DNA from: an uncultured Gammaproteobacteria bacterium
GTDB lineage: Bacteria > Patescibacteriota > Patescibacteriia > SBBC01 > CAIJZX01
Assembly: GCA_964349465.1 (NCBI GenBank)
Contig: CAYGGC010000006.1
Coordinates: 1,218-65,217 of the forward strand
Length of the DNA: 64,000 bases
Direction of reading: 5' to 3'
In this document: positions 953 to 17,771 of the stretch, piece by piece
Layout: every line of letters begins with the position of its first letter
Position numbering within the stretch: the first letter of the stretch is position 1
The notes under the pieces: generated by a model
Seen by the model: the letters and a program-made list of their open reading frames with translations, nothing else
Told to the model about the DNA's origin: nothing
The model's database searches: none
Position numbers and translations under genes: made by a program

Positions 953-1189
953 TTAGCGGACAGTAAACGGAATCAACGACATGATGCGAGCGCGTTTGAT
1001 CGCTTGGCTGATCATGCGTTGGTGCTTGACGCAGGTACCGCTACGGCGTCGCGGGACGATCTTGGAATACGATGAGGTGAAGCGCTGAATCAGGCGGAGG
1101 TCCTTATAGTCGACGTCATTAATGGCGTGGACGCAGAAGAAACAGCTCTTGGCCTTTTCTGGCGCGGTGGTTTGTTGCTTCGGGCGCAT
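953..1189 (-). CDS. rpsR: 30S ribosomal protein S18
   Basis: The 78-aa product carries the S18 signature RRFTSSYSKIVPRRRSGTCVKHQR and sits directly downstream of ssb. Confidence 0.9.
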   Translation of the reverse strand: MRPKQQTTAPEKAKSCFFCVHAINDVDYKDLRLIQRFTSSYSKIVPRRRSGTCVKHQRMISQAIKRARIMSLIPFTVR

Positions 1190-1192
1190 AAA

Positions 1193-1639: not shown

Positions 1640-1650
1640 AGGGTTGATGG

Positions 1651-2154: not shown

Positions 2155-2366
2155 TGATGCTGCTGAGGAATAAAAAAGCGATGGACGTGCGGGCCGTTTT
2201 TGTCCCGCCGTAATGGCGGGACTACTTCCGGGTCCCGATCGACTTCGGGACACATGCATCGATGGCCAGACCTTACCAGAAAGCCCAATATTTGGCAAGT
2301 CCTGGTCGTATGGTCGCGACTACACCTGGTTGGGCGTGGCGGAGAAATAGGGTATACTGGCGCGGT

Positions 2367-3572
2367 ATGAATGATACCCTCTTTATCCTTGGTCGTGAGC
2401 CAGAGTTATCTGTCGCGGAACTGAATGCCATGGCCAAACACTGGTCCGGGCAGGTGGTATGGTGCTCAACGGAAGCAGCACTGGTGACGACAGCGAGCGA
2501 GGTGCCGTTGAACGAGTTCGCAAAACTTGGTGGGTCAGTAAAAATGATTCGAGTGTTAGAGCGCTGGCCCGCGGGCACACAGCCAATTGAGGTGGTTCGT
2601 GCGAAACTTGATTGGACCTGGCTCCAGCAATTCTGGCCCGAGGGTCGGGTTGAATTTGGTGTGAGCGCGTATGGATTCTCGAATAGTCAACGCGGAACCC
2701 TGATCGCCCATTTGCTCGGCGTAAAAAAAGATATCCGCGCCGACAAGCGGCCGGTCCGACTCGTGACCTCGCGTGAACCACAGCATTCCGCGGTGACGGT
2801 CCAGCGAAATGGACTGTTAAAAAACGGCAAGGAAATTGTTCTCGTCCATCACGGTGATGAGATTGTCGTTGGCGTGACTGTCGCGGTGCAGGATTACCAA
2901 GCCTACAGCTTGCGTGACTTCGGACGACCGAATGCCGATCCGAAAAATGGAATGGTCCCGCCGAAACTGGCTCAGATGATGCTCAATATCGCCGGAGCGA
3001 ACACGTCCGACATTCTTCTTGATCCATTTTGCGGATCTGGAACCGTTTTGCAGGAAGCGGCCTTGATGGGCGTGAAACAGTTGCACGGCAGCGATAACGA
3101 GGCAAAGGCTGTTAAAGACAGTCAAGAAAATCTTCGTTGGCTGGTGAAGGAATTGCCACAGTTGAATATTGACCTGGAAATTACGAAAATGGACGCCCGT
3201 TCATCGACGATCAAGCCAACCATGATTGTCACCGAACCATACCTTGGTCAGCCGCTCCGTGGACACGAACCGCTCCAGTGGTTAAAAAAACAAGCAGCTG
3301 AACTAGCAAAACTCTATCACGAAACATTCTACCAATGGAAAAGAATTCTTCGTCCAGGCGGACGAGTCGTGATGCTCTGGCCACTGTTTGTAAGCGAACA
3401 GGGGAACGTTCAACTTGAATTGGACACTGAAGTCGAGAAGCTTGGCTTTGTATCACAAGATCTGCTCACTCCCGAACAGGCGCAGGTCTTGAAAATTGAA
3501 AATCCAAAAGTCCTCACCTACGCCCGTGATGATGCGCGCGTGCGACGGCAGGTCCGGATGTGGGTAGTGTAG
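2367..3572 (+). CDS. SAM-dependent RNA (guanine-N2) methyltransferase, THUMP/Trm11-RlmL-like
   Basis: The SAM-binding motif DPFCGSGT is present. The start is trimmed to MNDTLF at 2367, and a TATACT box lies 9 nt upstream. Confidence 0.65.
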   Translation: MNDTLFILGREPELSVAELNAMAKHWSGQVVWCSTEAALVTTASEVPLNEFAKLGGSVKMIRVLERWPAGTQPIEVVRAKLDWTWLQQFWPEGRVEFGVSAYGFSNSQRGTLIAHLLGVKKDIRADKRPVRLVTSREPQHSAVTVQRNGLLKNGKEIVLVHHGDEIVVGVTVAVQDYQAYSLRDFGRPNADPKNGMVPPKLAQMMLNIAGANTSDILLDPFCGSGTVLQEAALMGVKQLHGSDNEAKAVKDSQENLRWLVKELPQLNIDLEITKMDARSSTIKPTMIVTEPYLGQPLRGHEPLQWLKKQAAELAKLYHETFYQWKRILRPGGRVVMLWPLFVSEQGNVQLELDTEVEKLGFVSQDLLTPEQAQVLKIENPKVLTYARDDARVRRQVRMWVV

Positions 3573-3593
3573 GTCACTTTCTTTGGAGGCGGG

Positions 3594-3623
3594 GATAAAA
3601 AAAGACCGGGATGTTCTCCGGTC
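3594..3623 (-). terminator. rho-independent terminator (minus strand)
   Basis: A GACCGGG/CCGGTC hairpin is followed on the minus strand by a T7 run (the plus strand reads ataaaaaaa). Confidence 0.5.
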
Positions 3624-4117
3624 GAAGGTCAGGCAGCTAGGTCTGCCTTAGTTTGGATCACCCCCTTCTAGCGAGTGTCGGCGCGGTGGTCGTTGAGGTA
3701 CGGCGCCAGAGACATCACTGAAGGCACCTCCTTCGTGGAAATGGCCGGGCTGATGGTTGGGGTGTCGGTAAAAGGTTCGCTAGCTGAACCGGGTTAGCAT
3801 CAGGAGGGCGAGACCGATGGCGCTCACCCGTACACGGTGTCGATTGCGGGCGGCAAAGTGTCGGGCCGCGGTGTTCTTGGCGTTGTGAATTCGGCGCCTC
3901 ATGGCCCTGCTCGAACGAGCGGTGCCAGGGGTAAAGCGGTGAGGAGTCTCAGGACGCGGAGAACGGGCTGCCGTACATACCTCCCTGTTGAAGTGCACTC
4001 GGACGTGGGAAATGAAAAAAGCTACCCAGAGTATACCTCCGACTTACACCTTCGTGAATTGTTCGTCAAGCCCCCCACACCAAAACTGAGGCAACAGTTT
4101 TGGTGTGGGGGCAAGAC

Positions 4118-5206
4118 CTAGGCCGCAACTCGAAAGAAGACGACATCACCATCGTGGATGATGTATTCTTTGCCTTCAATCCGGAGTTTTCCGGCCGTTT
4201 TTGCCGCTTCCCATGAGCCCGCGGCGACCAGATCAGGATAGCTGACCACTTCTACTCTAATGAAAGTCTTTTCGAAATCGGTGTGGATAACGCCAGCGGC
4301 TTGGGGAGCTTTTGTTCCGATTGGAACTGTCCAGGCCCGTGTTTCGTCGGCACCGGTCGTCAGGAAGGTGATGAGACCAAGTGTTTGGTAGGCGAGCTGA
4401 ATGAGCCGATCGAGGCCCGAGGCGGCTAACCCGAGCTCGGCGAGATAGGCGGCAGCGTCTTCGGGCGGCAAATCAGCTAACTCCTGCTCAACCTTCACGG
4501 CCACGATGATTGTTTGGTCAGGCGGCAGGTTGAAGTCGCTGGCCTGCGCCGAGGCGAGCTGATTTTCGCTAACATTCACGACGTACAGTAGGGGCTTACT
4601 GGTGAGCAGTGTTAAGGTCTTCACTAATACCAGCTCGTCGTCGGTCAGGCTCATCGTCCGGACCGGATGGCCGGCGCCGAGATGTGCGTGAACTTTTTCG
4701 ACCAAGGTTAATTCAGTTTGCGCGGCTTTATCTAGACCAGCTTTCTTTTGTTTCGTGAGCGTCTCCAGTCGCTTTGTGACTGTGGCGAGGTCAGCCATAG
4801 CCAATTCAATCTCAATCGTGGTGATGTCGGACGTGGGATCGACTTTCCCTGCAACGTGGATAATATTCGGATCCTCAAAAGCGCGAACAACTTCGGCGAT
4901 TGCATCGACCTCACGGATATTGGCTAGAAATTTATTCCCAAGACCTTCTCCTTGGTGAGCGCCGGCCACTAACCCAGCAATGTCGACAAATTCAACGGTT
5001 GTGGCAATAGTTTTTTTCGAGGACTCCTGCCTCGTTAAAACATCGAGCCGTTCATCAGGGACGGGGACAACGCCAACATTTGGATCAATGGTTGCGAATG
5101 GGTAATTCGCTACATCGACCTGCTTTTTGGTCAGGATTTGGAAGAGGGAGGATTTGCCGACGTTGGGGAGGCCGACGATACCGATCGTTTGTTTTGAACC
5201 TGACAT
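4118..5206 (-). CDS. ychF: ribosome-binding ATPase YchF (Obg-family GTPase)
   Basis: Diagnostic N-terminus [14 protein letters not shown] and a C-terminal TGS domain; 362 aa. Confidence 0.9.
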
Positions 5207-6788
5207 AGTTTGAGGTTATGGGTAAATATCCGCTCACTTCTAGCTTTTCTTGCGTAGCAACGATTCTTTCTATGACGTTGGTTACTATTTCACGTCTAAG
5301 GCCAAAATTCAAGCCAACAAGGGCTTCTTTTGACTCCTCCGCGAAGGCATTGATCTCATCGCTATTCGGTAAGTCCGTCGCATTTACCTGCTCTTCCTGT
5401 TGTTTGGCCTTTACTGTTTGGAGTCCTAGCGAGGCAACCTGTTCTTTTAACGGCGCTATATATTCCTTTAACTGATCAATACTAAAGAGCCCAGCCCCGT
5501 ATGCCTTGGTGTAGCGTTCCTCCTGTTCTTTTAGTTTCAAAATACTTTTTTCCATCACTTTTGTATCTCCAACTGCAGAACCCGCCCTATTTTTCCGTGT
5601 ATTAGTCCAGCGCTTAAGATACATCTCAAGCAAGTCTGGTGAACTCATTAATCCTGCAATTTTGTCCCAAACTAATCTATCAGCTATTCGTGCATTAAGA
5701 CCTCTTTCCTGACAAGTACGAGGCAGGGGAGCGCTTAATACCCTATCAGTACATCTGTAGTAGAGGTGCTTTCCTTGTTGTGGGCCCTCGCCCGCACGTG
5801 TACGGCCACAGACACATCGTATCTTACCTGAAAGCAGGTACTCATTTTTTTTATTTCTTTTACATAAAGCGAAGTTAGCTTTTATCTGCTCACGCGCTCG
5901 TATGAATAACTTCTCATCAATTATCGGCGGCACCGGGATCTTCGAGGCGATCCAGTCTTCCTCCGGCTTAATTCTTCTACTACTCTTCTTCATTTTGCGG
6001 TACTTTTCTTTGTTGGTAGGATTTTCGGGAACCACGGCGTAAGAGCTACCCCAGTGAGCCTCCCCAATATAAGTCCTGTTCCTTAACATCGTGGTGAGGG
6101 TGCTAGTAGCCCAAACGCCACGCCTACTTAATCGTGGTTTAATGCCTAGTTCGTGTAACTTTCTAACTATCGTCCTAAGGGTTAATCCTTCCTCGCCAAC
6201 CCAGCTAAATATTATTTTTACAACCCTGGCTTCTTCGGGATCGATTTCATAGTAACCATGCCGGCCTTCTTCTTTCTTAATATAGCTGTAGCCATACAAC
6301 GGTCTACTCACCAGAAGATGGCCCTCTTTTACCTTACGGAGCTTCCCTAACCGGAAACGTTCAGAAATTTTCGCTCGTTCATATTGTGCGAACAAACCTT
6401 TAACCCCATATAATATTTTGTCTTCCTCGTTTTTAGGAGTAGATGTAGTAACAAAAAGTACCTCTATACCAGCCTCTCGTAATTCGTCCATGACCAGTTC
6501 TTGATACGAATATCTACGGGCTAACCGATCTGGGTCATACATCAAAACTGCTTCCCATGTTTTCTTTTTTGCATCTATGCGAAGTTGGTCAAGCGCTGGC
6601 CTTACAATGTTATCTCCACTCCAACCATTATCGAGATATTCTTGGACGATAGTATATTGGTTTTGTTTAGCAAAGTCTTTTACAGCACCAAGCTGAGTTT
6701 CAATAGTTCCCTCATTCTCTTGGTTCGAGGTTGAAACCCTTCCATAGATGGCAATCAGTTTCATTTCTTTTTTGAGGGAGTCGGTCAT
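5085..6788 (-). CDS. large serine recombinase (integrase)
   Basis: N-terminal resolvase domain (LIAIYGRVSTSNQ), followed by a recombinase domain and a Cys-rich zinc-ribbon (CVCG...YYRCT). The last ~40 codons read into host DNA antisense to ychF. Confidence 0.8.
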   Translation of the reverse strand: MTDSLKKEMKLIAIYGRVSTSNQENEGTIETQLGAVKDFAKQNQYTIVQEYLDNGWSGDNIVRPALDQLRIDAKKKTWEAVLMYDPDRLARRYSYQELVMDELREAGIEVLFVTTSTPKNEEDKILYGVKGLFAQYERAKISERFRLGKLRKVKEGHLLVSRPLYGYSYIKKEEGRHGYYEIDPEEARVVKIIFSWVGEEGLTLRTIVRKLHELGIKPRLSRRGVWATSTLTTMLRNRTYIGEAHWGSSYAVVPENPTNKEKYRKMKKSSRRIKPEEDWIASKIPVPPIIDEKLFIRAREQIKANFALCKRNKKNEYLLSGKIRCVCGRTRAGEGPQQGKHLYYRCTDRVLSAPLPRTCQERGLNARIADRLVWDKIAGLMSSPDLLEMYLKRWTNTRKNRAGSAVGDTKVMEKSILKLKEQEERYTKAYGAGLFSIDQLKEYIAPLKEQVASLGLQTVKAKQQEEQVNATDLPNSDEINAFAEESKEALVGLNFGLRREIVTNVIERIVATQEKLEVSGYLPITSNYVRFKTNDRYRRPPQRRQILPLPNPDQKAGRCSELPIRNH

Positions 6789-6793
6789 AAGAT

Positions 6794-6982
6794 TTACCCG
6801 TTTCGGGTTCTCTTCAATAAGTTTTCTTTTTCGGTTTCAGGTATTCGCCAAAGCGCGGTTTTACCCTTCCCTAACTTATATCCTTTCAGTAGGCCAGTTT
6901 TCAGCCATCTCTCAACGGTTCGGGGATGTACCCGAAAGTATTTTGCTACCTCACCTTTAGTAAGAAAATTCATTAAAATCAT
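6794..6982 (-). CDS. excisionase/AlpA-like HTH DNA-binding protein
   Basis: 62-aa protein with a helix-turn-helix (EVAKYFRVHPRTVERWLKTG), immediately upstream of int. Confidence 0.55.
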   Translation of the reverse strand: MILMNFLTKGEVAKYFRVHPRTVERWLKTGLLKGYKLGKGKTALWRIPETEKENLLKRTRNG

Positions 6983-6989
6983 TATATTC

Positions 6990-7202
6990 CTAATTGCTCT
7001 TAGATGTCAAAGTCTCATTCTTGGGGGTTTCAGCTTTTCTCTCCCTTCTTCTAAGCACTTCATCAAACAAAATACTGAAAGCCCGATCTAGTGCTGGTAT
7101 GGCAGACTCACCAAGCTCAACCTGTTGGTAGTTTAGTTTTACCAACATGGGCTTATTGTTGTGTTTTTGTGGTAGCCGCTTATCCATAGCGTAGCCACTC
7201 AA
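6990..7202 (-). CDS. hypothetical protein (island)
   Basis: An ORF with island-like composition that is tightly packed against its neighbours. Confidence 0.3.
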   Translation of the reverse strand: MSGYAMDKRLPQKHNNKPMLVKLNYQQVELGESAIPALDRAFSILFDEVLRRRERKAETPKNETLTSKSN

Positions 7203-7283
7203 TGGTGAGCGACGACGCTACGGTCTTCGTTTTGGGCTAAGTTATTTCGTAACTAGGTCATAAATTTAATGAAAGTATGATTT

Positions 7284-7649
7284 TCATACACTTTTACCAA
7301 GTAGTTCGTCGAGCGCAGAGATGACCCCTTTTGCGTCCATGCCTATAAGCTCGCGCTCACGTTCACGAATGATTTGCTTCAGTTCGCGTTCATTTGCTAT
7401 CGGATAGCCCAGATCGAGGTTACGTGTTGCTTCAATCATTTTCACCAAATCATTGTCCTCCAAAGCTTTTTTTAGAAGTTTCATGCGCCAAGGTCGATAA
7501 TGCCGGCGGATCACCCTAGCGTAGCCATTCGTGTATCTAGCCTTTAGCGCGCTTTGATATGCATTACCGAATGTAGGCGAGGCAATATCAATATATGCCC
7601 GAAGGAAGTCGAACTCTTGAAGGGTAATACTAAACTTCTTATTACTCAT
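7284..7649 (-). CDS. hypothetical protein (island)
   Basis: 121-aa ORF with island-like composition and no recognisable motif. Confidence 0.4.
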   Translation of the reverse strand: MSNKKFSITLQEFDFLRAYIDIASPTFGNAYQSALKARYTNGYARVIRRHYRPWRMKLLKKALEDNDLVKMIEATRNLDLGYPIANERELKQIIRERERELIGMDAKGVISALDELLGKSV

Positions 7650-7753
7650 ATGCTTTCATACCTACAAGGAAAATCAGGGTTATCAAAGTCAATTGTTGTT
7701 TATGAATAGTCATTATCTTTTTGTTATTTATAATTTATCAAACTCCCTGCTAA

Positions 7754-9187
7754 CTATGATATTGGTATAAGGGCCTGTTGCTTTTCTTGCCCGTGCTCTT
7801 CGTCAAAGAGGGAATTTAGTTCGGCTTCAGAAAGTTCGAGTTGATCAGTAGCGCCTAGCTCTACGTTCCTCCACCCCGTTACCTGCACCTTGTTCTTGGT
7901 TAGGGGATTCATTTCTGACTTTTTCCCATCAATAATATAATCGGCATAATTGCGGATTTTTTTGCCTAGATTTTCCATTGTATCGGCAGGAAGGTTTTTA
8001 GAGCGCGCGTATCGGATAAAAGCCTCGTGCATATCCGTCTTACTTATCCACTCCCCAGTAGCCTCTTTGAGACAGTCATGCACAAACTGTGCAATGACAG
8101 AGCCAGAGCGTTGCATCTCCTTTTTAATTTCATGCGGCGCTTTTGTATAGCTGAACCTTTGGTTTTCCAGCAATCGTTTTAACCCCACAAGCGCAAAGTT
8201 TAGTAGCCCGGACAATTCTTCGGGGGTAGAGATTTTGTCGATCAAAAACTTATCCGGGGTAGCTACTTCATTTCTGAAATGAATAATTATCCATCGACCG
8301 AAATATGCGGCATCGTTAGGGTCTTTAACGTCAGGAATTTTATTGCAAGCAAAAGTCAACTTGGCATAGTTCTCAAATTGAAACTGGTCGCCAAATTTAT
8401 ACTCGCCGGTGATGCTACCGCCACCAGTCGCAATCTTAAAAGCCCCGTTGTCGCTAATATCCTTAAATGATAGGTCATCGTAAATGTTTATATGCTTATT
8501 ATAGAAATGAGCAGCCGCGAACTTGTCAGAAGTGACTTTCTGTAAACTCACGCCCGATACGTTCTCTTTTCCAATGAATCTCTCAAAAAGTCTTAGGAGC
8601 GTTGTCTTGCCTGTATCTCCCTCGCCTACAAAAATTATTGCCTTTTTTATGAAATAAGTTCTGTACAGGATGTACCCGAACCACTCCTGAATTAAAGGCA
8701 CGTCTTGCTTGTCCAGTACTTCCAAGAGAAACTTTTTAATCACTGGACAATCAGCATCCCTAACAAAAGAAACGGGGATCTTATGAAAAAATAGATTCTT
8801 CGAATCATGCGCGCTTATTTTGCTGGTTTTAATATCTAATACTTCATTTTCAAGATTTATCAATTCCCTGCCAACCTTAAAATCTTTTCGATCCATTGTT
8901 GTTGAATCTTTAATCTTTTCAATAATCTCGTTTTTGTAGTGCTTACTAACCAACGATCTTAGTATCCTTTGTATTTCTGACCTTATTGAGTTGCCCCCGG
9001 GTACATAAATGCCATTTTTATAAAGATAAATATCGCGTGACTTCTCCCCAATGGTTTTAAGTTGGTATCTGTCGATTAAATAGTCCGCAATGCTTTGCGA
9101 GCCTAAAGATTTATCTGTTAGATAGAGGCTTCTCAGCCCTTCCTCTTCTTGATCTTGTTCGATTATATTTTGTGTTTGAGGACTCAT
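7754..9187 (-). CDS. phage/plasmid primase-helicase (D5_N plus SF3 P-loop NTPase, P4-alpha-like C-terminal domain)
   Basis: Walker A motif VGEGDTGKTT, and an overall sequence like phage-associated D5/P4 primase C-terminal domains. Confidence 0.65.
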   Translation of the reverse strand: MSPQTQNIIEQDQEEEGLRSLYLTDKSLGSQSIADYLIDRYQLKTIGEKSRDIYLYKNGIYVPGGNSIRSEIQRILRSLVSKHYKNEIIEKIKDSTTMDRKDFKVGRELINLENEVLDIKTSKISAHDSKNLFFHKIPVSFVRDADCPVIKKFLLEVLDKQDVPLIQEWFGYILYRTYFIKKAIIFVGEGDTGKTTLLRLFERFIGKENVSGVSLQKVTSDKFAAAHFYNKHINIYDDLSFKDISDNGAFKIATGGGSITGEYKFGDQFQFENYAKLTFACNKIPDVKDPNDAAYFGRWIIIHFRNEVATPDKFLIDKISTPEELSGLLNFALVGLKRLLENQRFSYTKAPHEIKKEMQRSGSVIAQFVHDCLKEATGEWISKTDMHEAFIRYARSKNLPADTMENLGKKIRNYADYIIDGKKSEMNPLTKNKVQVTGWRNVELGATDQLELSEAELNSLFDEEHGQEKQQALIPIS

Positions 9188-9441
9188 ATCTGGACATGTA
9201 AAATCGGATTTTTAAACTTTAAAGTCCAACGTTTTGCGCATCGATCACATACAAATACTATTTCAGATTGTCCACTTTCCTCATCCATTCCCTGAAGACA
9301 AGCCCTGCCGGTACCGACACGGCAATGTGGGCACTTCTGTAGTGCTTCTTTGTTTTCAACATTACCGTCTTGATCCAGCTTGACGACTGTATTGATAACA
9401 ACCTCAGCGTCGAACATTCTTTGATCATTACGTAATTTCAT
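9184..9441 (-). CDS. small zinc-ribbon protein
   Basis: Two CxxC pairs (CPHC...CDRC). It overlaps the primase start by 4 nt, so the two genes are translationally coupled. Confidence 0.5.
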   Translation of the reverse strand: MKLRNDQRMFDAEVVINTVVKLDQDGNVENKEALQKCPHCRVGTGRACLQGMDEESGQSEIVFVCDRCAKRWTLKFKNPILHVQI

Positions 9442-9494
9442 ACCAATGGGGTTATTGTAAGAAAGCCCACTAATGGCTTCACAGGGTCTCTGCT

Positions 9495-9539
9495 GGGTTT
9501 AGAAAGCAAAGCCACTAGCGGGCTTTGCTTTCTAAACCC
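9495..9539. repeat. perfect 19-bp-stem inverted repeat (GGGTTTAGAAAGCAAAGCC-N7-GGCTTTGCTTTCTAAACCC)
   Basis: Seen directly in the sequence. It lies in the divergent intergenic region next to the primase operon. Confidence 0.8.
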
Positions 9540-10021
9540 AGAAAACCGCAATCTCATGATTGCGGTTGCGGTTTTGGTAGCTATTTAAAAAAGGCTACCA
9601 CCGCATCCCACAATGTGAGATGAAATGGTAGCCCCTCAACTTTCCCTCTACCCAGCGGAGCACTTGAGCCCCGACTAATTGTCAATAATGGAATTATAGT
9701 CGATCTGTCTTTAATGTCAATGAGTTTATACACACTTTCGCTTTCTTTCTGTAAAGCGAAATCCAAACTTTAAAAATGTGTTAAAACCTGATATCCTGTA
9801 GCAACAACTTAATAGATCAGATTTGCCTAAACTCTATGGAATTTTCGTAGGGCATGGCAAAAAAATCCACAAGTAGAAACGGTCTTTTTGACCGGGTACT
9901 ACTTGTGGTCTATCTCCGAAAGGGGGTAGGGCGATCGAAAGGTCGCCGCCCGGATTAAGAGACCGTTTTAAGTTGGTCTTCTGCCGGTAAAGAAAAGACT
10001 AAATTCCTAACAGAAGATATT

Positions 10022-10234
10022 ATGGAAAAAGAACCATACAAGCCCACTGTTCTTCCAGCGAAAGAAGATCCGGCGAATCCCGATAACTGGGAATACGATG
10101 CTAATATGCAAGGTTTTCCCGGGCAGGTTTATTCTCGCAAGCTGACAGAAAAACAGAAGGGCTGGATAGTTATTGCAAAGATTACTTTTTGGGGAGTTTT
10201 GGCGTGGACTATCATTAAGTATCTAATTCTATGA
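10022..10234 (+). CDS. small membrane protein
   Basis: 70 aa with a C-terminal transmembrane helix; island cargo. Confidence 0.4.
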   Translation: MEKEPYKPTVLPAKEDPANPDNWEYDANMQGFPGQVYSRKLTEKQKGWIVIAKITFWGVLAWTIIKYLIL

Positions 10235-10440
10235 AAAAACATCTTTACTATTTAGTTGGAATTACAGTCCTAATTTTTGCGATTGGCTATTTGTTTTCAC
10301 AATATATAGCCTACAAGCAGTTTCGCCTATCACAAGAGAAAGCGATACAGGATTGTGTAGAAAAGACTATTGGAACAAATACCGCTGGCTTCATTGCTTC
10401 GAATGCAAAACAAAAGTGTGTGGAAAAGTTTTCCCAATAG
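10231..10440 (+). CDS. small membrane protein
   Basis: 69 aa with an N-terminal transmembrane helix. Its start overlaps the upstream stop (ATGA). Confidence 0.4.
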   Translation: MKKHLYYLVGITVLIFAIGYLFSQYIAYKQFRLSQEKAIQDCVEKTIGTNTAGFIASNAKQKCVEKFSQ

Positions 10441-10586
10441 TTTTTATTGGCTGGAAGGGGTTGCCCCAACGGGCATCCCTGTTAGCGACAAAAAAGTATC
10501 CACAGATACCCTCTTTGTTCGTTTTTGTGGTAAAATAGATTTAGATAAAAATAGGCCAATTTAAATATAAAACTGGGCGATTTATT

Positions 10587-11186
10587 ATGACTACCAACGA
10601 TAGAATCATACGTAGCGCCCTAAAGAAGAAACTACAAGAAACGCACAAAGACGATCCTAAGCTAAGGATCGTTGAGGAGTTGGGCGTTAAACATGGGGCT
10701 GCCAGAGTTGATATTGCTGTTATCAATGGAGTTCTGCATGGTTATGAAATAAAAAGTGATCGGGACACCTTGCTTCGTTTACCTGAACAGATGGCTGCAT
10801 ATAATTCTGTTTTTGATCAAATAACTTTAGTCGTTGGGAAAAGTCATTTGCATGAAGCAATAAATGTTGTTCCGGATTGGTGGGGGATTACGATTGCAAA
10901 GATTGATTCAGCTAACGTCGTTGTTTTTAGCTGTATACGTGAAGCGAAAAAAAACCTTAAGCAAGACACTATTTCCATAGCAAGGCTTTTATGGAAAGAT
11001 GAGGCGCTAGAAATTTTAGAAGAAGCTGGTCAAGCGGATGGAATTCGCTCAAAAACAAGGGGCTTCATATATGAAAGGTTGTCTGAAGCATTCGATCAGA
11101 AGATTCTCCAAGAAAAGGTTAGAAACGTATTATTTTTTAGGGAAGGTTGGAGATCTGATTCGCCACTAGTACTAAATGGTGGTTAA
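10587..11186 (+). CDS. sce7726-family-like protein (PD-(D/E)xK-like motif)
   Basis: The block ELGVKHGAARVDIAVINGVLHGYEIKSDRDTLLRLPEQ matches my recollection of the sce7726 family, which pairs with sce7725/Beta proteins. It has the D..E.K spacing of restriction-like nucleases. Confidence 0.45.
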   Translation: MTTNDRIIRSALKKKLQETHKDDPKLRIVEELGVKHGAARVDIAVINGVLHGYEIKSDRDTLLRLPEQMAAYNSVFDQITLVVGKSHLHEAINVVPDWWGITIAKIDSANVVVFSCIREAKKNLKQDTISIARLLWKDEALEILEEAGQADGIRSKTRGFIYERLSEAFDQKILQEKVRNVLFFREGWRSDSPLVLNGG

Positions 11187-12264
11187 CACCGGCGCGTAAC
11201 CAAGTTCGCGGGCTACCCGTGTTTGGCGTATCAACGTCTTCACCTTTTTCTGCTATGTACGCATCGCCGTAGCTAAAGCCTTTGCCCTTGTACTCTGGCT
11301 GACTCATAAGTAGTTGCGCATGAGAAGGATATTGAGAGTGCCCGGGGCCTTCATTCCCATCCTTGTCTATTTTATGCAGAGCCTCGCCTCGCATGATTAC
11401 CCACTCGCTTTCACCAGAATATCTTATACTAGCGCTCGGATTTGCTTCTGGATTTGGCTCAGTATAGATTGGGTGCTGGATTGTGTAATCAGCAAATGCG
11501 GGTTTTCTTTTTTGTGTTCCCGAATAAATCTCTTTCAACCAGTAAGCCCAATCAGAGCGAGGAATCCTATAAGTGGCGTGTGGGCTAAAGCGAGAAAGGT
11601 CGAAAGGAAATGCCCCCCCAGCGACCGTAAACGTTCTCCATCGTATAAGGTCGGGGATATTATTAATAGATTTAACGATTTTGGAATATTCTTCTTGAGG
11701 CATACCCTCCACGAGTTCAAAGTCGACTAAGAGGTCGACTTGTTCGTGTTTGAGATCATTTCTTTTTATAAACTCATTAATACTTGTAGCAAGCTTATTA
11801 GAAGAGAGATCAGCACGTAGTATTCTCAAGCATACACCACTTTCGTATTGCTTTATTATTTTTATGATCGTGCCTTCAACATCTATATCGCTATTTATCC
11901 GAATAACGGGAATAACTCGAGAGCCGATAGCAGGTCCTTTACTCATGATTTCTGTGTAGCCCCACTTTTGCAGCGCCCCGCTTGTCAGAAGATTAAGGTC
12001 AATGAATATTGGACTATTGCCCCAATACTTCAGTATTTCTTTTGGCAGGTTGGGTAATGTCCCCTTTAACTTCTCAATAGATTGAGTCTTATACTCTTCA
12101 GGAGTTTTTTTGGCCTCCCCCCTTTTTAATCTTTTACGGGCGGGCATTATTAACTCTAGTAAAGGCGTGATTATTAGCCTGTCTTTTTCAGTAAGCTCTT
12201 TTAAGGCCTCTTTTTCAGCGGTTTTCCACCGCAATATTGGTACGTAGTGTTTTGCGTCAAACAT
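11137..12264 (-). CDS. Beta-protein family (sce7725-like) protein
   Basis: The N-terminus HYVPILRWKTAEKEALKEL...ITPLLEL matches my recollection of the Beta_protein/sce7725 family. The ATG overlaps the stop of the upstream HTH-ImmA gene. Confidence 0.5.
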   Translation of the reverse strand: MFDAKHYVPILRWKTAEKEALKELTEKDRLIITPLLELIMPARKRLKRGEAKKTPEEYKTQSIEKLKGTLPNLPKEILKYWGNSPIFIDLNLLTSGALQKWGYTEIMSKGPAIGSRVIPVIRINSDIDVEGTIIKIIKQYESGVCLRILRADLSSNKLATSINEFIKRNDLKHEQVDLLVDFELVEGMPQEEYSKIVKSINNIPDLIRWRTFTVAGGAFPFDLSRFSPHATYRIPRSDWAYWLKEIYSGTQKRKPAFADYTIQHPIYTEPNPEANPSASIRYSGESEWVIMRGEALHKIDKDGNEGPGHSQYPSHAQLLMSQPEYKGKGFSYGDAYIAEKGEDVDTPNTGSPRTWLRAGVNHHLVLVANQISNLP

Positions 12265-12265
12265 A

Positions 12266-13495
12266 TTATTTAGTAGGCCATTTAATATCTTGGAAATAAT
12301 CTCTAACTTTTGCCGCATTTGTAATCGCATTTAAGTTTGGAGATTGATAGCGCTTATGTTTATGCATCATTATTCCAGTAACAATAGCCACGTTAATCCC
12401 AAGCTCATCGGCTAAACTTTGTGCCGCAACTGGTGAGGGTACTCTTTTTGCAGGACTTTTTTCCCATTTGTCATTAGGTAGCAGAGCTTCTCCTGCTAGC
12501 ATGTCTGCCTCGGTTTCCTTCGTATCAATCTCCGCGCCCCCTACCCCTTCAATCTCATCGTAGAATAGGTTGATATTTTTATCGAAGTGCAAGGCAATGT
12601 GAGCCAGTTCATGCATTAAAGTAAACCAAAAGTTATCTAGTCGATCATATCTAACTGTTAGACCAATGACAGGGTTATCTTTATTTATTAAGATTGTTGC
12701 CCCATCTAAATAGGTTTTAGTTAAATGAGGCGCAATAACAAGTTTAATCCCAAACTTTGTTAAGTATTGTTGAGCCACAATAGGGCTTTTTTCTTTCGTA
12801 CTTAACTTTGCCATTTCTCTCATAAAAGCTAGATTTACAGCTCCATTCTTGTATTTAACTGGAACCTTCACCTCCTCAGATTTTTTTAAGATATATTCAG
12901 ACCATGCCGCAAGCGCGCGTTTGTCAGTTAAAAGAGAAGATCGATAATGAGATTGTCGTGGCATTCCGGCAAGTTGGAACTCAGGGCCGATAACTGAAAA
13001 GAAGTTTCTTAGTAGTTTTTCTTTATTTGAGACATCTAATCTACCTCGCCCAAAGTAACCACGTTCTGACATTTCTCTAATTACGCGAGTATCCCAGCCA
13101 CTATAAAGCGCGTTTTCGCTTTGGTCAGGTTTTTTGAGAAGAACTTTCGCCGGAATACCTAAGCCGGCCTCCAATAATCTAATCATGTCGAGTGTAAGCG
13201 TTCTTTTTCCAGAAAGAATTTCTGATACTCTACTTCTGCTACCTAGATAGGGGATTAGATCGGCAGGTGTCAAATCCGCTTGCTCCATTCGGAATTTAAT
13301 GGCTTCGACAGGATCGGGGAGTGTTGCAGAAAAAGCTTTAGCTTCGTAGTCAGCTACAAGAGTACTTAGAATACTAAGTTGTTCTCCTTCTTGTGATTCA
13401 GGATCAGGATCACCAGCCATAAGCGCCTCAATAAATTCGAGCGCTTCTTGGTAGTCTCTTTCAGTTCTTATTACTTTAATGTCAGGCATGGTCAT
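12266..13495 (-). CDS. HigA-type HTH antitoxin fused to an ImmA/IrrE-family zinc metallopeptidase
   Basis: The N-terminal ~120 aa look like HigA (IKFRMEQADLTPADL...SRVSEILSGKRTLTLDMIRLLEAGLGIP). The C-terminus has the HEXXH motif HELAHIALH. Confidence 0.75.
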   Translation of the reverse strand: MTMPDIKVIRTERDYQEALEFIEALMAGDPDPESQEGEQLSILSTLVADYEAKAFSATLPDPVEAIKFRMEQADLTPADLIPYLGSRSRVSEILSGKRTLTLDMIRLLEAGLGIPAKVLLKKPDQSENALYSGWDTRVIREMSERGYFGRGRLDVSNKEKLLRNFFSVIGPEFQLAGMPRQSHYRSSLLTDKRALAAWSEYILKKSEEVKVPVKYKNGAVNLAFMREMAKLSTKEKSPIVAQQYLTKFGIKLVIAPHLTKTYLDGATILINKDNPVIGLTVRYDRLDNFWFTLMHELAHIALHFDKNINLFYDEIEGVGGAEIDTKETEADMLAGEALLPNDKWEKSPAKRVPSPVAAQSLADELGINVAIVTGIMMHKHKRYQSPNLNAITNAAKVRDYFQDIKWPTK

Positions 13496-13500
13496 ATTGG

Positions 13501-13788
13501 CTATTTAATTTGCCACTTGTCGTATTCTTTATGGGTACCAACTTTTTTGATAAGCACCACCCCAGTCTTATAAGCGATTCTCACCCATATCCGATACTTG
13601 TTCCAGCAAATGTCGAAGATTGCTTGTAGGTTGCCCGGTAGGCTAACCCGGGGGTATTTATTTCGGACATCTTGAGGTGTTTTCCATTCAGCAGCCTCGA
13701 CTTCTGCCTCCCAAGATTCGAGCTGCGATCTGGCATCAGCATGCTCTTCCCCAAAATCGCGCAGTTGTTGTTTTCCTAGTAAGTTCAT
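13501..13788 (-). CDS. higB: type II toxin HigB (RelE/ParE fold)
   Basis: LRDFGEEHADARSQLESWEAEVEAAEWKTPQDVRNKYP...ICWNKYRIWVRI...VGTHKEYDK matches the HigB toxin family. The gene is trimmed to the internal Met (MNLLGKQQL). Confidence 0.75.
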   Translation of the reverse strand: MNLLGKQQLRDFGEEHADARSQLESWEAEVEAAEWKTPQDVRNKYPRVSLPGNLQAIFDICWNKYRIWVRIAYKTGVVLIKKVGTHKEYDKWQIK

Positions 13789-14253
13789 GATACGTAGTAG
13801 TGGAGTAGTGTACATTAAGACCGTTCCCATGGTGGGAACGATACCAAATGTACAAAGTATTGTCAATAGCCCCGTAATTGGGGGTGTGTGGGCATAGTCG
13901 GGGAACCTTTTTACGAGTATATACCCTCTAAAAAGAATCCCATTTTTTGGACTGGGGGTCATTCTACAGGCACTGATCGTACGATTCTGCCCTGTAGGCT
14001 ACGGCTCACGATGGCGCGCTCATAGCGAGGCGCAGGGAGCCTTATGGTAAAGGCGAAGGGTATCAGTTTTGCCGATGTATCGGCATGGTCATGTCGTGCT
14101 GTACTCGAACCATGCCGATTTTGAATGACATAGAGGCCCCGATGGTAGCATGGGGTTGACGAAGACTCAAGAGAGGAGTATCGATAGAGAGGACGGACCC
14201 CCCGGCTCGTCTTCGTCCCTTTCGTTCGCGTCCCTATTTCCAAGGAGCTGGAA

Positions 14254-14523
14254 ATGGACAACGATGATCTGCTCATTTTGAGCCATGCTGTGGAGGCAAC
14301 CAAGCCACTCGGTACTCGCGTTTCGCGGCTAACCACCTTGCGCCGTTCCTACGTCTTGCTCCGCCTCGCGTTTCGCGCGGCTCGTCGTCGGAAGCTCGAT
14401 GCCTGCCGAAGATTCCTCGACCGGGCGCTTCCCGGGTTCTGCCAGAGCAACGACCTCGTGTCGTGCACTAGCGAACTTCTCGGGGTGTACAACCACCTCG
14501 GCCACCAGCTTCACGCAGCCTAA
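14254..14523 (+). CDS. hypothetical protein
   Basis: An AAGGAG Shine-Dalgarno sequence lies 7 nt upstream; the composition matches the host. Confidence 0.4.
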   Translation: MDNDDLLILSHAVEATKPLGTRVSRLTTLRRSYVLLRLAFRAARRRKLDACRRFLDRALPGFCQSNDLVSCTSELLGVYNHLGHQLHAA

Positions 14524-14635
14524 CCCCGATAGGCTGTTTTTCTTTTGATCGGTAATGATATTGACAACGCACGATGCCAAACGTAGTATGCGGCCATCGA
14601 TCTTTATATTACCCTTCCAACCGCGGAGGTACGGT

Positions 14636-15202
14636 ATGCAGTGGTTTGTCGTACTGACCGCGTTGATGGGCGGTCTCATGGTAACCCCAGTTTTGGCTGA
14701 GGAGCATGAGGACGTAGAGCTTGTCCCTACGACTATCGGTATTACCGTGACGGACCGTGCTGGCCAGCCCTTGACCACACGGGATAGTGTGGTCGTGGTT
14801 ATCTGGGACCAGTTTGGCAAACGTCCCTGGTTGCCGGAACATTGGACCGAGCTTGTGCTGAAATCAGGTCCAGTTGGTGCTCTGGTGCCAACCCGAATCC
14901 CGTTGAATAAAGCTGGGCTGCGCTACTTGTGGTGGTATGCCAAAGTCTTCCATCGGCCGACGATTAAACTCGGTTTCACGGTCCGAGATGGACAGGGTCA
15001 GCTGATTCAACCACCTGTCGGCATTCGGATTGTGATTTGGCAGCTGGGCCCGGATCCATGGCCGCACGACCTCTGGGTTACGGTCGCTGGTGACCTTGAT
15101 CGAGTAGGGCACATCGTTGTACCGGTCAATTTCCCGCTAAATGGAGCAGTGGTGAAAAACTTGACCACCCTCTCGAAGAGCCGTGAACAGCGCCAGCCGT
15201 GA
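14636..15202 (+). CDS. secreted hypothetical protein
   Basis: Signal peptide MQWFVVLTALMGGLMVTPVLA, with GGAGG upstream. Confidence 0.5.
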   Translation: MQWFVVLTALMGGLMVTPVLAEEHEDVELVPTTIGITVTDRAGQPLTTRDSVVVVIWDQFGKRPWLPEHWTELVLKSGPVGALVPTRIPLNKAGLRYLWWYAKVFHRPTIKLGFTVRDGQGQLIQPPVGIRIVIWQLGPDPWPHDLWVTVAGDLDRVGHIVVPVNFPLNGAVVKNLTTLSKSREQRQP

Positions 15203-15225
15203 CCATATATAGGATACTTGGCATA

Positions 15226-15251
15226 GACCGTTCTGGACGAACGGTTTTTTC
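15226..15251 (+). terminator. rho-independent terminator
   Basis: A CCGTTC-TGGAC-GAACGG hairpin followed by TTTTTT. Confidence 0.65.
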
Positions 15252-15303
15252 TGTCCTTAGTGCCTAGACGACAAAGCATCAAAAAAATACTATACTAGAC
15301 TCT

Positions 15304-17733
15304 ATGATACCAACAATGAAACGTTCCATAGTTGTACTGGGAGTAGCCGGACTCTGTCTTTGTGTCCGTGGTTCAACTTTGCGAGCACAAACCCCACCGA
15401 CGCTGTCCATCCCACTGACGGTATCTGATGTGACCGGCTACGTTCGTTCGAATGATCCGGTCACGAGCGGGATCCCAATTCCGCTATCAGCGGTTGGCGA
15501 CTCGTGGTCCTTATTCGATGGGGCGACCGAGGTGCCACTGCAAACACAGGTCTTATCAGGCCAGGCAGTTCCTTGGCTTATGCTTGATTTCCCTGCGTCC
15601 GTTAGCGCGATGGGAACAACAACCTATACGTTGCAGAATACTGCTCCGACCGCGCCGGCAGACAGCCTGAGCTACGTTCATACCAGCTCGAGTGAAACAG
15701 TAACGACGGGTCCATTGAAGTTTACCGTGGGCACAAGTCCGTTTCTTGGTATTCAGGATCTCTGGTTCGACGCAAATGCGAATGATGTCTTTGAGGTAGG
15801 GGAACATCGGATTAGTAGCGGAAGCGTTAATGCCTTACGCGTAACGAACGCAGAGACGGGCGTGACAACCGCCGCCACGCCAACGTCGGTCAGTTGGGAG
15901 TCACAAGGAACCCAACGAGCTACCCTGCGGATTGATGGAACCTTCACGGAGGCCAGTTCCACCTTGTTGACATTTACTCTGCGTATGACCGCCTGGGCGG
16001 GACGCAGTGATCTGGGAATCGAACTTGTTTTGCGGAACTCAAACTCATCGGCGCAGAAATTCGTAAAACTCTCTTCGGCGATATTTCAAATTGGCAGCTC
16101 CGCGACAACTCTGCGACCAAACCGGTCGAGCGATCGAGTGTGGGGACTAGCCGATGCTACTGGTCAGACCATTCAATGGTTGCCGGTGAGTGAACTTGTT
16201 TCAACCGCGTATGATCCGGTTGGTGATCCGCGAATCGAGCGCCAGACAGCGCTGTTTACGGTTGATACGAATGGCGGCTTGGTCCTCGGTGACCTGTCTC
16301 ACCAAAGCGGGTCTGCGACCATTGATTTTAATTCTGGGCTTTCTCCGCTCGAGCAAGCCTCGGCCCAATATCGAGCTATGACGCCGTTATTCGCCCGCGC
16401 TGATGCGAGCTGGTATTCGGCCCAGAACGCGCTTGGTGTGCCGGGGTTTGGGACGTTAGCAGACGAGCAATCGGCCTATACGGCGTGGAATTGGACCTGG
16501 CCGAATCCTAATAACGGGTATGCCGCGGTTCCGCATCTCAATCGGCCAACAAATTTTTACCCATCCTGGAGTAATACGAACGGTGCCGAAGACCCGGAAG
16601 GGGATTTTGTCGCACAGAACAACCTGATGTTTATTCGATTAGGCGATCAGGCCTATAAAGATCGGATGGATGCGTATGTATGGTATGCGAAAAATCAGTG
16701 GATTTATCGGACGGACGGGTTTACTGCTTATGGCAATGACTATTGGGATGGCCCGCACGCGGTTAACCGGGGTACCGACACTATTGCTGGAGCAACAAGT
16801 ACCGATCAAAATCGGATAACCAAAGATATCGCGTATGGGCGGGTTGATTATTCACACGCCTGGGCGAGTGGTCTCGTGGATTACTATTATCTTACTGGTG
16901 ATCGGGATGCTCTGGACACGGCGATTGATGTGGCCGAAGAGTGTCGGAACCAGAGCGATTGGTTCAGCGCTGGCACACCGTCTGGTGCAGTTAGCGATAG
17001 TCCGCGTGCCAAGGCACGCTGCTGGCAAAGCACCTTACGGGTGTGGGAAGCGACTGGTGATGCGCAGTGGCTAACCTCGGCAAACCACTATCGGGATTTA
17101 TTTCTCCAATCAACATCGTATTCGGCAGAACGAATGTATTTTGGGTACACCTGTGATCTCGGTGCAGCCTATTGCGCTCGGTATCCAAACGGTACTTTTA
17201 ACTCACCCTTCCAAATTGGTGACACGGTTCACGTCATGTACCACGACTATGTTCTTTTCAATAACCAGGCGGTGAAAGATCGTCTCATTGAAATTGCTAA
17301 CTTTGCCATGCAACATGGACTGGATCCGGCAACTGGGGCGACCGGGGATTATATCGTTTTTGTTGGGTCAAATGTTTATCATCATACGTATTCTCAATTT
17401 CGCGGGACAACGCCGACCTACACCGTGAACTATTCCTCGAGCTCATTGGCATTTATTGACACGTTAGCCATTGGCTATCGCTTGAACGGAAACTTGGCCT
17501 ATTTGGGCCGAGCAAAAAGCTTGTTATCGGCCGCGACGAAGCGCCTTGGCATTCAGCCGTATACCGAAACCATTGCTGATGCCAATCATGTTGGTCAGTT
17601 TATAGGTAATATGAACGGCAACGCGAATACACGGTATAATGATGATCTTACCTATACGGCTCTGTTCCTACGGGATGCATATTTGGCCGATAGTATAGTG
17701 CCTGGACGCGTGACGAATTTGAGCGCGCAATAA
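15304..17733 (+). CDS. large secreted protein, possible alpha/alpha-toroid polysaccharide lyase/hydrolase-like
   Basis: It has a signal peptide, and the Trp/Tyr-rich C-terminal half resembles heparinase/alginate-lyase-like toroid domains. The functional call is weak. Confidence 0.5.
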   Translation: MIPTMKRSIVVLGVAGLCLCVRGSTLRAQTPPTLSIPLTVSDVTGYVRSNDPVTSGIPIPLSAVGDSWSLFDGATEVPLQTQVLSGQAVPWLMLDFPASVSAMGTTTYTLQNTAPTAPADSLSYVHTSSSETVTTGPLKFTVGTSPFLGIQDLWFDANANDVFEVGEHRISSGSVNALRVTNAETGVTTAATPTSVSWESQGTQRATLRIDGTFTEASSTLLTFTLRMTAWAGRSDLGIELVLRNSNSSAQKFVKLSSAIFQIGSSATTLRPNRSSDRVWGLADATGQTIQWLPVSELVSTAYDPVGDPRIERQTALFTVDTNGGLVLGDLSHQSGSATIDFNSGLSPLEQASAQYRAMTPLFARADASWYSAQNALGVPGFGTLADEQSAYTAWNWTWPNPNNGYAAVPHLNRPTNFYPSWSNTNGAEDPEGDFVAQNNLMFIRLGDQAYKDRMDAYVWYAKNQWIYRTDGFTAYGNDYWDGPHAVNRGTDTIAGATSTDQNRITKDIAYGRVDYSHAWASGLVDYYYLTGDRDALDTAIDVAEECRNQSDWFSAGTPSGAVSDSPRAKARCWQSTLRVWEATGDAQWLTSANHYRDLFLQSTSYSAERMYFGYTCDLGAAYCARYPNGTFNSPFQIGDTVHVMYHDYVLFNNQAVKDRLIEIANFAMQHGLDPATGATGDYIVFVGSNVYHHTYSQFRGTTPTYTVNYSSSSLAFIDTLAIGYRLNGNLAYLGRAKSLLSAATKRLGIQPYTETIADANHVGQFIGNMNGNANTRYNDDLTYTALFLRDAYLADSIVPGRVTNLSAQ

Positions 17734-17756
17734 AAAACCGACCAACAATCAGTCGG
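17731..17756 (-). terminator. putative terminator for the DUF360 operon
   Basis: A CCGAC/GTCGG hairpin with an A7 run on the plus strand, which reads as a T run on the minus strand. Confidence 0.4.
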
Positions 17757-17771
17757 TCGTGACGCTGTTAA

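Follow-up and report, generated by a model that had tools for sequence, protein, structure and literature searches.

A mobile element of Patescibacteria whose attachment site is shared by its own serine recombinase gene and the 5' end of its target, ychF

The window analysed here is a 64,000-nt stretch of contig CAYGGC010000006.1 (assembly GCA_964349465.1, positions 1,218 to 65,217 of the forward strand). It very probably holds an integrative mobile element of a Patescibacteria (candidate phyla radiation, CPR) host, which occupies positions 5183-14116 on the minus strand (8,934 bp, a single copy of the GG core being counted) and owes its insertion in the 5' coding region of ychF to a large serine recombinase (LSR) that it encodes. 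As judged from the sequences, its main feature is the overlap, in one short piece of DNA, of the element's attachment site (attP), the 3' end of the recombinase gene and the 5' end of ychF, an overlap conserved in more than 150 copies. The insertion site, the core, the reciprocal products of the exchange and the swaps of both the ychF 5' end and the LSR 3' end can all be read from the DNA itself.

The ends of the element were placed by comparing the junctions in nine family loci, by alignment with a collinear empty site (locus L172) and by composition relative to the host. The left junction lies at 5181-5183, that is, 24-26 bp within the annotated ychF open reading frame (ORF), and the right junction at 14114-14116. 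Read on the minus strand, with a slash after the core, the left junction is ..AACT ATG TCA GGT TCA AAA CAA ACG ATC GG/T ATC GTC GGC CTC CCC AAC GTC GGC AAA (its ATG starting at 5206) and the right one ..CCTCT ATG TCA TTC AAA ATC GG/C ATG GTT CGA GTA CAG CAC GAC AT.. (its ATG starting at 14131). The left attachment site, attL (5157-5206, minus strand), is made of the P arm of the element (5206-5183, ATGTCAGGTTCAAAACAAACGATC), the GG core (5182-5181) and the host B' arm (5180-5157), which is the P-loop coding sequence of ychF. The right one, attR (14091-14140, minus strand), is made of the host B arm (14140-14117), the GG core (14116-14115) and the P' arm of the element (14114-14091, CATGGTTCGAGTACAGCACGACAT). 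Rejoining the ends gives a 50-bp attP, ATGTCAGGTTCAAAACAAACGATC GG CATGGTTCGAGTACAGCACGACAT, an imperfect 24+2+24 palindrome of the form ATGTC..-N-GG-N-..GACAT that spans codons 528-544 of the 587-codon recombinase gene. These sites have the properties expected for large serine recombinases, namely a length of about 40-50 bp, dyad symmetry, a non-palindromic 2-bp core and no long direct repeats. The predicted junction k-mers are CAAAACAAACGATCGGCATGGTTCGAGTACAG for attP in the excised form and TCATTCAAAATCGGTATCGTCGGCCTCC for attB in the restored ychF.

The first-pass annotation had the element end at 5207 and at about 13990 or 14000, inserted precisely at the ychF start codon; these ends have to be moved to the junctions given above. 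The ATG at 5204-5206 is itself element DNA, so the start codon is not the insertion point; the crossover falls at the GG of native codon 6.

Both ends could be compared in nine family loci (L081, L084, L088, L095, L126, L131, L138, L139 and L142), with elements of 7.0-11.4 kb. In every one of the nine, one junction consists of the native ATG, 3-5 codons, GG and the P' arm, and the other of the P arm, GG and the ychF P-loop. Since the bases flanking GG differ between the two junctions in L126, L139 and L142, leaving GG as the sole identity common to both, GG is the crossover core, and on this comparison strand exchange takes place in codon 6 of native ychF, at the GG of the codon for the first P-loop glycine. 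At attL the base that follows GG has a host-like distribution (A 32, C 19, T 10, as against A 32, C 22, T 20 and G 4 in empty sites), and is T both in the empty site L172 and in the attL of the window; at attR it is C in 7/9 junctions, and intact attP sites have C in 11/14 cases. AT, considered as an alternative core, was rejected since the base that separates it from GG resembles that of the host at attL and that of attP at attR. A blind palindrome scan for the best dyad within the last 260 nt of intact homologous genes gave the same centre: the best 24+2+24 dyad is centred on this GG in the reconstructed attP of the window and in L086, L085 (Bradyrhizobium), L112, L151, L167 and L169, with 14-16 of the 24 positions complementary. 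In attB, the right half corresponds to the conserved ychF sequence that encodes the P-loop, GGN ATC GTN GGN CTN CCN AAY GTN GGN AAR.

The recombinase gene in its integrated (prophage) form (5085-6788, minus strand) encodes 567 aa, of which 536 residues are native and 31 are read out of frame from ychF, into which the ORF continues for 122 nt. The protein matches the Pfam families Resolvase (PF00239, 3.9e-29, residues 12-157), Recombinase (PF07508, 8.4e-20) and Zn_ribbon_recom (PF13408, 8.8e-06). In its catalytic motif, YGRVSTSNQ, residues Y15, R17, V18, S19 and T20 are invariant in 31 homologues, and the AlphaFold2 model of a homologue (P0051) predicts long helices (382-468) following the zinc ribbon. 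The parts that define an LSR are all present: a resolvase catalytic domain with the R-V-S-T serine motif, Recombinase and zinc-ribbon domains, and a coiled-coil insertion.

The native end of this gene is found at the far end of the island, as an orphan of 51 codons and a stop (13959-14114, minus strand; HGSSTARHDHADTSAKLIPFAFTIRLPAPRYERAIVSRSLQGRIVRSVPVE and stop). A window ORF at this end (13959-14336, minus strand) terminates in ..NRHGSSTARHDHADTSAKLIPFAFTIRLPAPRYERAIVSRSLQGRIVRSVPVE followed by the stop, which is the tail seen in intact recombinases. When the ends are rejoined the orphan fuses in frame to the 536 native residues, giving a protein of 587 aa whose 51-residue tail matches intact homologues; the same orphan fragment occurs at the far end of a sister element (L084). 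Because attP lies inside the LSR ORF, integration parts the last 51 codons from the gene, and the encoded protein changes from 587 aa to 567 aa. Two classes of C-terminus were found among 120 homologues beyond the conserved ..GYIPIT.NYV.FKT..R. One, R[YHN][CRS][RGW].., is the ychF P-loop sequence read one base out of frame, and the other, ..RHG....RH......LIPFEF.I.LP.P..., is the intact tail. In the AlphaFold2 model of the intact LSR of a circular relative (L086), residues 528-547, which are encoded by attP, have a predicted local distance difference test (pLDDT) below 50. Three strands follow, the first of them a confident beta-strand at 550-559 with a pLDDT of about 87. Given the low pLDDT of the former and the confident strand of the latter, the tail is probably a structured appendage on a flexible linker.

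The intact form of the gene is known from this circular relative, L086, a contig of 8,445 bp whose ends overlap by 16 bp, which leaves 8,429 bp once it is closed. Closing the circle completes an HTH_17 (helix-turn-helix) gene directly upstream of an intact 586-aa LSR, and by its sequence L086 is the episomal counterpart of the ychF-targeting element type.

The reciprocal change is seen in ychF. The gene is now chimeric (4118-5206, minus strand; 362 aa): its ATG and the next seven codons, which together spell MSGSKQTI (5206-5183), are element DNA, and the remainder, with the Pfam YchF domains intact, is native. The codons supplied by the element come from the outer motif of attP, read in a different frame. 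The native start, ATG TCA TTC AAA ATC (MSFKI), lies stranded at 14117-14131 (minus strand) with the native upstream region beyond it; ychF in L172 starts identically, and in L001, a syntenic locus described below, it starts similarly. This replacement is general in the family. Eight residues of the MSSSKLxI type precede the first P-loop glycine in 50 of 61 recombinase-adjacent (occupied) ychF genes, and 2-5 residues do so in 76/78 empty sites; close YchF relatives accordingly measure 359 aa at empty and 362 aa at occupied sites, as predicted. After integration ychF lies directly downstream of, and overlaps, the HTH_17-LSR operon. In the native upstream region (14132-14175, minus strand) and in L172 and L001 we observed a conserved motif, TTGAnn..TGCTACCAT/TGCTACGAT, that ends about 10 nt before the ATG and would imply a very short leader, or none, on the native ychF mRNA; no such motif is conserved ahead of the ATG supplied by the element.

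The overlap also misleads gene callers. Automatic calls in three independent public assemblies (L081-L083) give ychF as an N-terminally truncated protein of 283 aa, the recombinase ORF having been extended 122 nt into it, and this is an annotation artefact that is probably widespread in the recombinase family. The ORF of another homologue (P0043, 648 aa) ends in genuine YchF sequence (..FEDDNIIHVHGAD), which suggests a frameshifted or read-through recombinase-YchF fusion call.

Empty target sites confirm the junctions. The closest YchF in a collection of species-representative genomes (70% identical) belongs to a metagenome-assembled genome of Candidatus Kerfeldbacteria (L001), and the other near matches are Patescibacteria. 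None of the 80 species-representative ychF loci contains the recombinase of the element, and these loci served as empty sites. L001 is syntenic with the window over 1-5185 (ychF, methyltransferase, S6, SSB, S18, EF-P) and 17775-22596, and contains nothing that matches 5186-17775, so the genes downstream and upstream of ychF stand together there without the element. The closer empty site, L172 (YchF 91% identical, 359 aa), aligns to the joined flanks of the window as one 2,265-bp high-scoring segment pair across the join, where its sequence is ...ATGTCATTCAAAATCGGTATCGTCGG... and where the two are identical through GCTACCATCGGGGCCTCTATGTCATTCAAAATCGGTATCGTCGGCCTCCC. Aligned to the occupied window it gives instead two such pairs, which overlap by 11 nt and whose ends are at 14109 and 5185. 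Loci L174/L175 are the empty counterparts for the sister element L084. The comparison with insert-free relatives that the first-pass annotation had proposed thus yielded an empty locus and defined attB, attL and attR.

The compositional island on which that annotation was built stands. GC content is 0.418 over 5183-14116 and 0.53 in the host flanks on both sides, and the tetranucleotide distance between the element and the rest of the window is 0.45, against 0.097 +/- 0.008 for 41 host windows of the same size (z about 45). The final 156 nt of the element are host-like, with a GC content of 0.55. The genes then listed are likewise present: a large serine recombinase, an AlpA/Xis-like helix-turn-helix (HTH) protein, a D5/P4-type helicase with an upstream zinc-ribbon ORF, a hairpin region and defence cargo. 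That the island is an integrative mobile element is borne out by the LSR, the excisionase-type HTH, the P4-family helicase domain, the defence cargo and the empty-site relative L172. The position of attP within the recombinase ORF, the coding overlap of the recombinase with the ychF N-terminus and the LOOT RNA described below go beyond what had been noticed at first.

The recombinase family is large. About 200 relatives with 55-88% identity were found. Of the tails of 120 database homologues (55-100% identical), about 86 are in the ychF frame and 32 are intact, and for 81 loci the numbers are about 63 and about 18; overall the tail derived from ychF was counted in about 150 copies, mostly from CPR bacteria. 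In a scan of 80 metagenome loci, ychF typically begins 90-120 nt before the end of the LSR alignment, and the host YchF is only 39-84% identical to that of the window. Closely related elements (LSR 86-88% identical) occur in different hosts. Beyond the HTH_17-LSR pair the gene content varies among loci, with AAA_25, DnaG-type zinc or Prim-Pol replication genes and restriction-modification systems found elsewhere. No relatives of the recombinase were found in a scan of viral contigs, and the best recombinases in annotated phage and plasmid collections are only 29-33% identical. Intact-tail relatives outside the CPR (LSR about 60-63% identical) are chromosomal, in Bradyrhizobium diazoefficiens (AP014685, L085) and in the B' clade (L167-L171), and their neighbours are insertion sequence elements and defence genes (Wadjet-like JetB and MksE/SMC, an OLD-family nuclease, a ubiquitin-like/ThiF system, patatin and trypsin).

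The following course of events would explain these observations. The LSR would recognise the 50-bp attP within its own ORF and integrate the circular element at the GG of the ychF P-loop. As the sequences show, the exchange has moved the promoter region, the ATG and the first five codons of native ychF 8.9 kb away, fused the body of the gene to the element's ATG and seven codons, and carried the last 51 LSR codons to the far end of the element, and the LSR has gained 31 out-of-frame codons from ychF. Since the native upstream region is now 8.9 kb away and faces the PD-lambda-2 operon of the element, ychF would be transcribed by read-through from the HTH_17-LSR promoter. Excision by the truncated LSR, probably with the HTH_17 protein as its partner, would restore both genes, and the episome would be replicated or maintained through its helicase module under a control region made of the LOOT RNA and a hairpin-rich leader. 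The PD-lambda-2 system would give the host abortive-infection defence and so pay for carriage of the element.

This leads us to ask whether the exchange of C-termini has a role of its own. By analogy with the integrase of phage Mx8 (IntP/IntX), we tentatively raise the idea, which we hold to be possible but doubtful, that it is a built-in state sensor of a serine integrase, the swap of tails altering the activity or the direction of the LSR. The episomal 587-aa enzyme, with its structured tail, would then favour integration (attP x attB), and the integrated isoform, tail-less and tagged with ychF residues, would have altered activity or directionality and, together with the HTH_17 protein, might be able to excise the element. 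One stretch of 24 bp would do three jobs, providing an arm of attP, codons of the recombinase and the new N-terminus of an essential-type GTPase, ychF would come under control of the element, and the orphan LOOT RNA would be the control RNA of the family. If this is true, the enzyme would be the first serine-recombinase counterpart of Mx8 IntP/IntX and, being bacterial, would contradict the statement that only Archaea have gene-splitting integrases.

In mycobacteriophages with integration-dependent immunity, attP reportedly lies inside a regulatory ORF, so that integration alters a C-terminus and reports the integrated state; the split gene there is said to be the repressor, and the integrase a tyrosine recombinase. 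The closest precedent is phage Mx8 (Tojo et al. 1996; Magrini et al. 1999), which, as related in later papers (PMC6070905, PMC4383910), has attP in the integrase coding sequence, so that integration makes a new 3' end and the prophage integrase has a different C-terminus, its activity being changed and not destroyed. The likeness to the window element is the attP within the integrase ORF and the different C-terminus of the prophage enzyme. As described in those papers, however, Mx8 is a 49-kb phage with a tyrosine recombinase and tRNA-associated target sites, whereas the window element has an LSR, a 2-bp core and a palindromic attP, and its DNA also encodes the replacement N-terminus of the target gene. 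The 'suicidal' integrases of the archaeal SSV1/pTN3/pT26-2 type are also tyrosine enzymes with attP within the integrase ORF, and the gene is split on integration in a way that separates the catalytic domain and inactivates the enzyme, an arrangement said to be exclusive to Archaea (PMC8371274). The window LSR, in contrast, loses only its last 51 of 587 codons, keeps its known domains together and belongs to a bacterial host. Because its chemistry is that of a serine recombinase, we regard the enzyme as an analogue, and not a member, of the Mx8- and SSV-type integrases. Judging by gene context only, one paper reported that LSR-encoding pipolins of Actinomycetota, elements with piPolB, integrate at ychF (PMC11551731). 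These share with the window element the ychF target, the LSR and the role of platforms for defence genes, a likeness of target and enzyme class; no att sites or recombinase/ychF overlap were described in that paper, and the window element is without piPolB.

In the literature that we found, all integrases described as having attP inside their own gene are tyrosine enzymes (Mx8 and SSV-type), and among papers on integrative elements of Patescibacteria and on serine integrases no account of an attP within a serine-recombinase ORF was found. Here a serine integrase with attP in its own ORF rewrites both itself and its target gene on integration. The nucleotide-exact attP, attB, attL and attR and the GG core, given for a large and conserved LSR family, are relevant to the development of integrase tools, and the target, which is among the most conserved bacterial coding sequences, bears on how a single conserved half-site suffices. 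The family also gives a place, among defined mobile elements, to an RNA of unknown function (LOOT), adds a defence-carrying and, by prediction, self-replicating element to the CPR/Patescibacteria, where few are characterised, and exposes an annotation pitfall, gene callers lengthening the recombinase into ychF and cutting ychF to 283 aa.

Upstream of the recombinase, an HTH_17/excisionase-family gene (6794-6982, minus strand; Pfam 2.5e-10, TIGR01764 6e-08) stops 5 nt before the LSR start. The same pair stands together in 51 family loci, and the HTH_17 protein is a candidate directionality factor or regulator. A perfect pattern match to the sigma70-like consensus promoter (TTGACA-18-TATAAT; 6981-7010, minus strand) lies upstream of HTH_17, LSR and ychF. 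Next comes orf65 (6990-7187, minus strand), called as a gene in L081 and conserved in 6 family loci, for which profile searches gave no family match, and then orf121 (7284-7649, minus strand), possibly a DNA-binding protein like the small terminase subunit (TerS), with 65 uncharacterised homologues. The homologues of orf121 weakly match Terminase_2 in Pfam (34/40, best E 0.0016) and the terminase small subunit phrog_51 (32/40, best 2.5e-4), and its profile reached SF6 TerS among PDB sequences at E = 0.98. A predicted model of orf121 (pLDDT 72) gave nothing below E = 0.5 in Foldseek against PDB and BFVD, and hhalign against the TerS of L138 was uninformative; since neither method gave support, the TerS idea leans on the weak sequence matches. 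That TerS (L138 4625-5056, plus strand; Terminase_2, 9.5e-15) is a clear one, in an 8.0-kb sister element integrated at ychF that is without large terminase or capsid genes; a TerS alone is a hallmark of satellites of the phage-inducible chromosomal island (PICI) type.

The replication operon consists of a superfamily 3 (SF3) helicase of the P4/D5 family (7754-9187, minus strand), with D5_N and DUF5906 domains and the C-terminal domain of TIGR01613 ('phage/plasmid primase, P4 family', 2.3e-51), and of an 85-aa zinc-ribbon ORF (9184-9441, minus strand) that overlaps the helicase start, weakly matches Phage_zn_bind_8 and is conserved in L084 and L092. The helicase aligns solely to the C-terminal parts of PHROG primase profiles, with no primase domain detected; of the 'primase-helicase' initially annotated, the helicase (D5_N/DUF5906, TIGR01613) is retained and the primase is not. 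Ahead of this operon (9442-9720, minus strand) a perfect TTGACA/TATAAT match (9720-9693) faces it and is followed by four strong hairpins. The leader (9442-9680, about 240 nt) folds better than shuffled sequences (z = -9.2) and is a candidate control or origin region. It is nearly identical in the sister L084, and a third sequence did not align.

A LOOT RNA (Rfam RF03000, typed in Rfam merely as a small RNA) was found on the plus strand at 9824-9947, with orf70 starting 75 nt downstream; it covers model positions 1-121 of 121 and reaches 87.7 bits, where the gathering score is 46.4. It recurs in 16/20 other family elements scanned (L084, L086-L088, L090, L095, L097, L098, L100, L108, L110, L126, L131, L138, L146 and L148), 2.2-6 kb upstream of the LSR and on the opposite strand in 14 of these 16; with the window the count is 17/21, and in most of these elements LOOT diverges from the operon whose last genes are HTH_17 and the recombinase. 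LOOT is therefore a conserved component of the element family. It is followed in the window by orf70 and the hydrophobic orf69 (10022-10440, plus strand), taken from the ORF list, for which profile searches gave no family match.

Next come a gene of the sce7726 family, similar to P4 cII (10587-11186, plus strand; NCBIfam 1.7e-51, PADLOC cll 3.9e-24, precomputed PF26915), and, convergent with it, the defence cargo, a complete operon of the PD-lambda-2 type (11137-13788, minus strand). Its genes A (13501-13788), B (12266-13495) and C (11137-12330) are co-oriented and each is near full profile length: A is HigB-like (PADLOC 1.1e-34; Pfam HigB_toxin), B joins an Xre HTH to an M78 peptidase (PADLOC 8.1e-132; Pfam HTH_3 and Peptidase_M78) and C is P4 beta-like (PADLOC 9e-43; Pfam Beta_protein). 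The prototype, from E. coli, has these three genes in this order and works through abortive infection (Vassallo et al. 2022, PMC9519451); the copy in the window differs in that it lies in a CPR element beside the convergent sce7726/P4 cII-like gene, and is known here from its genes. We observed the same pairing of operon and cII-like gene in L084, and with a P4 beta-like C this pairing links the system to the gop-beta-cII module of phage P4.

The presence of such genes raises the question of whether the element is a P4-like or other phage satellite whose packaging depends on a helper phage, as the initial annotation had it; we regard this as rather unlikely. P4-like satellites carry the capsid-size and late-control genes sid, psu and delta. 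The window element resembles them and PICIs in being small and without structural genes, in combining an integrase with an AlpA/excisionase-type HTH and a P4-family helicase domain (TIGR01613), in carrying P4 beta and cII homologues and possibly in the TerS-like orf121, whose weak matches to small-terminase models are consistent, and a clear TerS occurs in the sister L138. Its integrase, however, is a serine and not a tyrosine enzyme, no element ORF matches the psu, sid, delta or epsilon families (Pfam, PHROGs, NCBIfam, PADLOC), its alpha-like protein has no detected primase domain, the beta/cII similarity concerns cargo and not satellite machinery, and neither the orf121 model nor its PDB profile match points firmly to a terminase. 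The viral-contig scan and the low identity of phage and plasmid recombinases also speak against it, and it has a CPR host and no known helper phage. Of the gene rules for P4-like elements it follows the AlpA-type HTH and departs in the tyrosine integrase and in sid, psu and delta, so that membership of the P4-like group is not upheld; a satellite-like lifestyle is possible on gene content.

The reading of a mobile element integrated by its own LSR has points of its own against it. Neither a same-strain empty site nor an excised circle was found, all three assemblies of the genome being occupied. Conservation among hosts is poor in the left half of attB (5' untranslated region and first codons), an unusual situation for an LSR that is site-specific. 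Intact-tail relatives inside chromosomes (L085, L167-L171) still have an unrecombined attP-like palindrome in the ORF, and therefore an intact gene is no proof of an episome. The activity of the prophage-form LSR, the directionality role of HTH_17 and the expression of ychF from the element are moreover predictions from sequence. Some of this would suit a fixed, immobile island, in which the recombinase was truncated on integration in the archaeal 'suicidal' manner and which is kept for its defence cargo and for the dependence of ychF upon it: besides the uniformly occupied assemblies, the prophage LSR is without the conserved tail and its predicted strand. We nevertheless think this improbable, given that all ORFs are intact, including the 536 native LSR codons and an orphan tail that rejoins in frame, that all recognised LSR domains are retained and that the composition is still strongly foreign; the 86-88% identical LSR elements in different hosts, together with related empty sites, imply recent mobility. 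Orphan gene fragments at island edges are often relics, and the recombinase tail at the right end might thus come from an earlier or tandem element, the true attP lying outside the recombinase ORF. Nothing specific favours this most improbable origin, and it is effectively refuted: the fragment abuts the native ychF start in 9/9 loci, rejoins in frame and completes the palindrome centred on the crossover GG, and the empty site leaves no space for extra DNA. An assembly chimera, a low-GC contig joined to a CPR chromosome, is a concern with metagenome-derived sequence, all the more when two public contigs stop about 360 bp past attR, but it is scarcely credible here and was rejected on recurring junctions, attL being identical in three independent assemblies (L081-L083) and attR in two, and the junction structure recurring in dozens of unrelated samples.

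The two contigs in question (L081 and L082, from independent public assemblies) both end at about window position 14477, which may reflect strain heterogeneity near the element. Exact-sequence look-ups of the window YchF and of an 809-aa protein encoded beside the element gave no match. The adjoining block that holds this protein (14117-17775) is without counterpart in the syntenic Kerfeldbacteria locus L001, yet its GC content is host-like (about 0.55); it contains an 89-aa gene that the empty site L172 has as well, a 215-aa ORF whose N-terminal part includes a hydrophobic stretch, and the 809-aa protein itself, which matches PcRGLX/GH127-like families only weakly.

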